Shown here one piece after another: positions 38,091 to 38,277 of a DNA stretch of 64,000 bases. Each line of letters begins with the position of its first letter. Position 1 is the stretch's first letter. The stretch is from a virus. Its lineage: Duplodnaviria; Caudoviricetes. The stretch is taken from IMG/VR virus record IMGVR_UViG_3300035208_008180. One strand, given 5' to 3'. The translations under genes were made by a program, and so were the position numbers. The notes below the pieces were generated by a model. That model worked only from the letters and a program-made list of their open reading frames with translations, was not told the origin of the DNA and ran no database searches.

Positions 38091-38270
38091 AAAAAAATAG
38101 GGGTGGTCCTGATTTTTTCCTGTGGGTTGCTATCCCATATTATTGTTACCACCCTTTACCGTCATCGTATTGGTGGGATTAGCCTTAGCAAAGGGCCTTG
38201 CAAGTCAATCAGGCTATCATCATCGATTTTATGCGTGCATCTCCGATAGGTTCGTCAACACCACCCCAAT
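38091..38270 (-). ncRNA. Candidate ~175-nt structured RNA
   Basis: Closing helix GGGGUGGU/ACCACCCC, then U7; internal CUAUC/GAUAG, CCUGAUU/AAUCAGG and CCACC/GGUGG. Confidence 0.5.
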
Positions 38271-38277
38271 CCAAGGG

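Follow-up and report, generated by a model that had tools for sequence, protein, structure and literature searches.

A previously undescribed structured RNA in a predicted early operon of a presumed giant phage, probably unrelated to the vault gene downstream

Genetic organization of the locus

The stretch of DNA analysed here, referred to as the window, comprises 64,000 nucleotides of the IMG/VR virus record IMGVR_UViG_3300035208_008180. It is included in contig C200 of assembly G000, which has 340,072 bases and a G+C content of 40%, against 64% for the assembly, and which carries a tail-sheath-like protein and other phage-type genes, as judged by reading the gene list. Because of this composition and these genes, C200 was treated as a giant phage binned with a bacterium. 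Besides C200, other contigs of G000 (C137, C242 and C44, among others) present 37-41% G+C, and therefore the bin contains foreign DNA.

Read along the minus strand, the region presents a promoter motif, a PncA-like gene, a vWA gene, a gap, a Tyr-rich ORF, and the genes for an NAPRTase, a macro-like protein, a PP2C phosphatase, a kinase and the major vault protein (Table 1). The label macro-like was given by reading, and PHROGs assigns this gene to phrog_335. According to the operon annotation, genes near the gap act on NAD precursors. The genes surrounding the gap are those of the TerY-P triad (vWA, PP2C and kinase) plus the PncA-like gene; the difference from the triad as found elsewhere is that, in 177 of the 178 related loci described below, no RNA was found at this place. 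The vault gene sits at the end of the unit formed by the PncA-like, vWA, NAPRTase, PP2C and kinase genes, and a protein encoded on another short contig (P0121) is 84% identical to the major vault protein of the window. The Tyr-rich ORF did not match any family; it has a hydrophobic N-terminus and three similar short repeats, and a possibly analogous ORF was observed after the vWA gene of locus L087.

Between positions 28001 and 41000, the profile of the early-type motif found one site on the minus strand, at 40099, and the scan with this motif found no promoter inside the RNA. On C200 the motif is strongly conserved, with a fixed extended -10 part, and nearly all of its 19 copies lie on the minus strand (for example 40099, 43168 and 11205 of the window). 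In addition, the 10-nt word CCTTGGRTTG is present on the minus strand at 39135 and 39110, both before the vWA gene, and at 38276, after the vWA stop and just 5' of the RNA; only one further copy exists on the 340-kb contig, and the word is absent from the L084 copy described below. The gap between the PncA-like and vWA genes was not conserved in L086.

The gap that follows the vWA gene is 196 nt long and lies between the vWA stop at 38278 and the next ATG at 38080. An earlier note on this DNA had proposed that it holds a discrete structured non-coding RNA or cis-acting element of no known family, and, as far as comparison of sequences can tell, this proposal is supported by the conservation, covariation and empty Rfam scans presented below. 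ARAGORN gave no match in the gap, and four DNA sequencing runs showed no variant within the RNA. The possibility of a small protein was rejected, since the two copies have no reading frame in common and differ by indels of 1, 1, 6 and 9 nt.

Table 1. Positions in the window of the RNA, its predicted elements and the neighbouring features.
Feature	Position	Strand	Remarks
Early-type (sigma-70-like) promoter motif	40072..40099	-	profile from 19 copies on C200
Isochorismatase/nicotinamidase-like (PncA-like) gene	39155..40027	-	weak direct PncA match (E 0.028); homologs match PF00857
vWA (YegL/TerY-like) gene	38278..39018	-	immediately 5' of the RNA; homologs carry the name YegL, and some match PF00092
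Structured RNA	38091..38267	-	about 177 nt including the U-tract, predicted ends; homolog in L084; consensus fold z -6.9
P1, 5' strand	38260..38267	-	pairs with 38107-38100; 8 bp, one compensatory and one G-U change; pair probability 1.00
P2, 3-bp hairpin with 4-nt loop	38250..38259	-	inside the longest invariant stretch (14 nt)
P3, 6-bp stem 38249-38244/38219-38214	38214..38249	-	one compensatory change; loop of 24 nt (15 nt in L084)
P4a, 5' strand	38209..38213	-	pairs with 38112-38108; 5 bp, one compensatory change
P4b, 5' strand	38201..38204	-	pairs with 38122-38119; 4 bp, one compensatory and one G-U change
Probable pseudoknot strand	38186..38189	-	pairs with 38132-38129 in the P6 loop; 4 bp, one compensatory change
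P5, hairpin of variable length, 38176-38172/38153-38149	38149..38176	-	probability 0.95 for the window copy; L084 has a variant of 3-4 bp
P6, 4-bp hairpin with 7-nt loop	38123..38137	-	stem invariant in both copies
P1, 3' strand	38100..38107	-	pairs with 38260-38267
U-tract, 8/9 U	38091..38099	-	directly after P1; in both copies; terminator-like or nuclease site
Tyr-rich ORF	37649..38080	-	ribosome-binding site 38090-38087 begins immediately past the U-tract
Major vault protein gene	29116..31569	-	PF11978 and PF17795; full-length; 6.5 kb downstream of the RNA

A homolog of the RNA in a second phage

With a profile built from 46 vWA proteins, 240 loci were obtained from three collections; the 178 with a close vWA match were kept, and L070-L083 and L196-L243 were left out as carrying distant vWA genes. 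When the gap was compared by blastn with the collected loci, one real match was obtained, L084:1475-1640, with 71% identity over 186 columns (E 1e-14), and nhmmer confirmed it as the sole one among them. The identity between the window and L084 at fourfold sites is 15/64 in the vWA gene, 12/45 in the PP2C gene and 34/120 in the kinase gene (23-28%); these sites are saturated, and therefore L084 belongs to a different phage. The two sequences share ten blastn matches, nine of them within ORFs, and the RNA is the only non-coding one: its sequence is constrained.

The RNA was found in one of the 178 related vWA loci, 161 of which have at least 300 nt downstream of the gene; therefore, the cassette does not need it. 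Further searches were carried out with model R1, which was built on two sequences and can therefore miss distant homologs; many of the records searched are fragments. R1 found one copy in the phage's own assembly (G000), and no further homolog in three sheath relatives or in sets of 60 and 100 loci. On 50 whole records it gave three weak partial matches (11.6-14.2 bits) that we treated as chance, and the best match on three more records (14.1 bits) was antisense inside a coding gene, with z -0.20. Four DNA patterns retrieved 6, 16, 5 and at least 116 stretches from IMG/VR, and neither the HMM nor the model gave a real match in them (80 of the last group were examined as loci). Comparison of the RNA by blastn with phage and plasmid collections did not reveal a further homolog either.

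In L084, a gene for an HNH endonuclease (PHROGs E 6e-18) lies between the vWA gene and the RNA and runs into the latter, and the RNA is followed by small ORFs and then by the PP2C gene. The RNA thus has different neighbours in the two phages, which is what a self-contained unit would show. One HNH family is placed directly behind the vWA gene in six loci, namely L084 (739-1527), L011, L156, L062, L042 and L047, and in L084, L011 and L156 a long hairpin spans the start of the HNH gene. As this gene follows vWA in five other loci that lack the RNA, and is absent from C200, its presence in L084 represents an independent insertion. The same inconstant link led us to reject a nuclease-associated guide RNA. 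A short hairpin, which we take to resemble the end of IS200/IS605-type elements, was also observed in L084 (about 1825-1850) and after the vWA gene of L056. Right after the vWA gene of L145 there is a different structured RNA of two domains (1604-1775, plus strand), which ends in a helix and a U-tract; it folds better than all of its 200 shuffles (z -4.6) and has no Rfam match at E up to 1. The slot after vWA accepts unrelated passengers, as the HNH family and the RNA of L145 illustrate.

Secondary structure and covariation

The four helices that had been proposed for the gap are all exact Watson-Crick complements on the minus strand, and the run of seven U described after the closing helix is present at 38097-38091, 2 nt past it. 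The comparison with shuffled sequences gave a divided result. On the one hand, the single sequences did not fold beyond chance: the window copy has an MFE of -49.6 kcal/mol and z -1.05, with 32 of 200 shuffles folding as well, and the L084 copy has z -1.81. On the other hand, the consensus of the two copies calculated with RNAalifold is significant (-35.1 kcal/mol, z -6.9), with none of 1000 column shuffles, which keep the gaps and the conservation pattern, as low. The compensatory pairs of the consensus fold were matched in 5 of the 1000 shuffles. Each of 60 control windows taken from aligned coding genes of these phages was weaker (lowest -28.0), and the opposite strand of the RNA reached -28.8; in eight of these controls, however, six or more compensatory pairs were counted, which equals or exceeds the number in the RNA when its consensus is folded without constraint.

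A model made by hand has seven helices in which 34 of 34 pairs are kept between the copies, with five double changes and two changes via G-U. The 68 paired columns contain 12 substitutions, none of which disrupts a pair, and three G-U pairs favour one strand as the RNA. The score of this model, which was derived from the same two sequences, was reached by 13 of 500 shuffles. With the pseudoknot omitted, its energy exceeds the MFE by 1.3 kcal/mol in the window copy and by 6.3 kcal/mol in L084.

The model predicts a four-way junction and a long arm that probably contains a pseudoknot, with the U-tract behind the closing helix. P1, P2, P3 and P4a join without unpaired bases; between P4a and P4b there is an internal loop whose 3' side is rich in A, and beyond P4b extends a domain with P5, an A-rich linker and P6. 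The 9-nt indel between the copies is confined to the P3 loop. Of the four helices originally proposed, three show a compensatory change each when the window is compared with L084; the remaining one, P5, is present in the window and only partly kept in L084. The junction itself holds, and it would have four ways instead of the three that were described if the 3-bp hairpin P2 (38259-38257/38252-38250) is real. P2 is unproven because it is invariant in both copies, and so lacks covariation support. The pseudoknot should be regarded as tentative, since chance stems with one double change also occur: five of the ten shared stems of at least 4 bp that carry such a change fall outside the model.

It could be argued that there is no RNA here and that the similarity reflects a site acting at the DNA level or chance conservation, given the weak folding of the single sequences and the existence of two copies only. 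We consider this highly improbable, because the substitutions in paired columns all keep pairing, the G-U pairs favour one strand and the neutral sites nearby are saturated. Furthermore, P2 contains a -35-like hexamer, which has no -10 partner at a constant spacing owing to the 9-nt indel. Very probably, then, the gap holds a real functional RNA structure.

Comparison with known classes of RNA

In agreement with the absence of a known family proposed earlier, no Rfam match was obtained at the gathering score. At E up to 10, the only matches were three C/D snoRNA models (E 2-7), and this assignment was rejected because the box-like words fall in covarying stems. A retron msr-msd was also rejected, since reverse transcriptase (PF00078) is encoded only on contigs C168 and C204 and not on C200. 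With the bacterial and phage Y RNAs of the YrlA type the RNA shares a long-range closing helix, a multi-helix body and a phage setting; it differs from them in that it has no Rfam match, neither copy has a tRNA-type T-loop, and Ro60/TROVE is encoded neither next to it nor elsewhere on the contig.

Small ribozymes occur between genes in phages, and an undescribed self-cleaving or processing ribozyme could cut a long early transcript between its genes. The invariant unpaired stretches, the tight junction, the probable pseudoknot and the intergenic place within the operon are in line with this idea; however, no Rfam ribozyme matched at E up to 10, and most self-cleaving classes are smaller than this RNA of about 175 nt, so that we regard it as unlikely.

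Another candidate arises from the RNase P RNA of the phage itself (C200:34143-34368, minus strand, 226 nt), which is located between two tRNA genes and whose alignment to the Rfam model passes over the S-domain: the RNA could be a free-standing S domain that completes it in trans. A second short phage RNase P RNA, of 229 nt, was observed at L309:1501-1729 (plus strand). The helix order of our RNA (a four-way junction, an A-rich internal loop, an inner multiloop and a hairpin with a 7-nt loop) resembles P7-P13, and a few short strings resemble the RNase P consensus. As this order recalls the S domain, we built model R2 from 18 bacterial S-domains, taken from 30 RNase P loci of which 20 were parsed and two, mis-cut or very long, were dropped. 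R2 found the bin's own RNase P at 151 bits; of the 15 matches that it gave in 74,655 bases with a limit of E 10, none was a copy of the RNA. Compared with the specificity domain of type A RNase P (P7-P14), the likeness is therefore one of helix order around the four-way junction and of those strings, whereas the two conserved loop motifs of the S domain are missing. The pairing with the phage RNase P RNA is not special either, as 150 of 300 random stretches pair as well, and R1 gave no match (best E 0.27) in G049, a further phage whose RNase P RNA is short. This origin is extremely unlikely.

By Rfam 15 and the literature searches, the fold is previously undescribed. The closest resemblance in kind is with the orphan structured RNAs of viruses and phages from Fremin-type surveys (PMC10690425), which are likewise intergenic, covarying, limited to few related phages and of no known function; four diagnostic 13-mers of the RNA were absent from the six supplementary files of that work that were searched. 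The terms sought did not occur in the main text of 10.64898/2026.10.21.760802.

Relationship with the vault gene

The earlier note had compared the architecture of this RNA with that of vault RNAs and had suggested it as possible vault cargo. In this view, the RNA would be the phage equivalent of a vault RNA, and the phage's major vault protein would package it. Both share paired 5' and 3' ends, a U-rich 3' end and a vault protein gene in the same genome, and in the window the RNA lies on the same strand as the vault gene and probably in the same transcript. The U-tail of vault RNAs belongs to transcription by RNA polymerase III, in contrast to the helix and U-tract found here, which have the appearance of a bacterial terminator, and the phage has no Pol III system. 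Vault genes are treated as Pol III genes in PMC13404743, where earlier work is also cited that links bacterial vault homologs with non-coding RNAs in their operons. Furthermore, eukaryotic vault RNAs (Rfam Vault) have 88-140 nt, compared with about 175 nt here, and phage vault proteins have already been described, without homologs of TEP1 or vPARP (10.1101/2023.11.10.566534). The Rfam vault RNA model gave no match at the gathering score or at E up to 10.

The distribution of the vault gene argues against this association. In the window, 3242 nt that contain the vault gene separate the gene for a small membrane protein from the NUDIX-like gene; in L084 this stretch is absent and the flanking genes overlap, which was read at the matching place of a contig of only 10.9 kb. 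None of the 178 vWA loci, of which 83 extend as far as the slot, has a vault gene in its available sequence, and for this reason the one in the window looks like a recent addition. Besides the positive control, one of 49 viral records (G047) carries a vault gene, far from its vWA gene, and R1 gave no credible match in the vault-encoding viral records G001, G002, G094 and G047. In addition, the TEP1/TROVE-type domain (PF05731) matches only contig C145 of the bin, and no such partner is encoded on C200. Since the slot in L084 is empty, vault-bearing records lack the RNA and C200 lacks TROVE, the proposal of a vault-RNA-like molecule or vault cargo is not supported, and we judge it very unlikely.

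Possible functions of the RNA

The main rival to a non-coding RNA is a regulated terminator for the genes downstream, comparable to an attenuator or riboswitch. Its body would sense a metabolite or protein, and P4a/P1 with the U-tract would keep the polymerase from reaching the NAPRTase, macro, PP2C, kinase and vault genes except when the signal permits read-through. P1 is a G+C-rich helix followed by the U-tract, an organization typical of intrinsic (Rho-independent) terminators that is kept in L084, and the U-tract abuts the next ribosome-binding site. In a strict scan, a hairpin with a U-tract was found within 200 nt after the vWA gene in 41 of 146 distinct related loci, so that position is also shared; L085 and L089 have a new promoter motif after the terminator, and none was found in the window or in the first 6 kb of L084. 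However, the loop of those terminators has 3-12 nt, whereas P1 encloses a conserved folded domain of 152 nt, and the terminator scan does not call the RNA a terminator.

As regards regulation, NAD-precursor genes adjoin the RNA, and alternative pairings exist: the 3' strand of P4a can extend P1 instead (probability 0.90 in the window copy). Against a switch, P1 is present in both alternative folds, no pairing removes it in both copies and the stem list contains no antiterminator kept in both. Moreover, the RNA is followed by a different gene in each of the two phages, and no known riboswitch model of Rfam matches. A regulated terminator is possible, and we mention it with reserve. In a more specific version, which is doubtful, the junction and pseudoknot would bind an NAD-related metabolite (such as nicotinate, NAD or ADP-ribose) and set the read-through when host defences drain NAD; if true, this would be the first member of a new class of phage terminators that sense metabolites.

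The reading that we prefer, with a probability of about 0.5 for the complete course from transcription at 40099 and a 3' end at the U-tract to the release of a stable RNA with a protein partner, is that of a conserved folded non-coding RNA which would be an accessory passenger of the early phage operon. Because the early-type site at 40099 is the single one upstream, and terminators occupy this place in relatives, the RNA most likely arises from that promoter and lies in a terminator slot. It has no early-type promoter of its own, and would be made as the tail of the pncA-like/vWA mRNA. The interior (P2, P3, P4 and the pseudoknotted arm) may fold first, and P4a and P1 would then close it; the U-tract behind P1 could yield the 3' end by termination or cleavage, with read-through feeding the downstream genes. 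The paired ends would let the RNA module outlive the mRNA. It might then act in trans by binding a protein, for which it would be a folded decoy or scaffold; the likeliest partner would be an RNA-binding factor, of the host or of the phage, that recognizes the invariant junction. It should be noted that two copies with five double changes do not provide a family-level covariation test, and that the position, with no early-type promoter behind the RNA in either phage, fits a cis-acting element equally well.

The two copies define a real phage RNA motif, probably unrelated to the vault gene. It adds a well-supported, undescribed RNA fold with a testable secondary structure to a giant phage in which unusual RNAs were already present, and it sets aside the attractive notion of a phage vault RNA; its present value is that of a good candidate for probing. 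If it turned out to be a terminator gated by a ligand, or to act on a host protein as a decoy, it would represent a new way in which a giant phage controls NAD-salvage and kinase/phosphatase genes early in infection.
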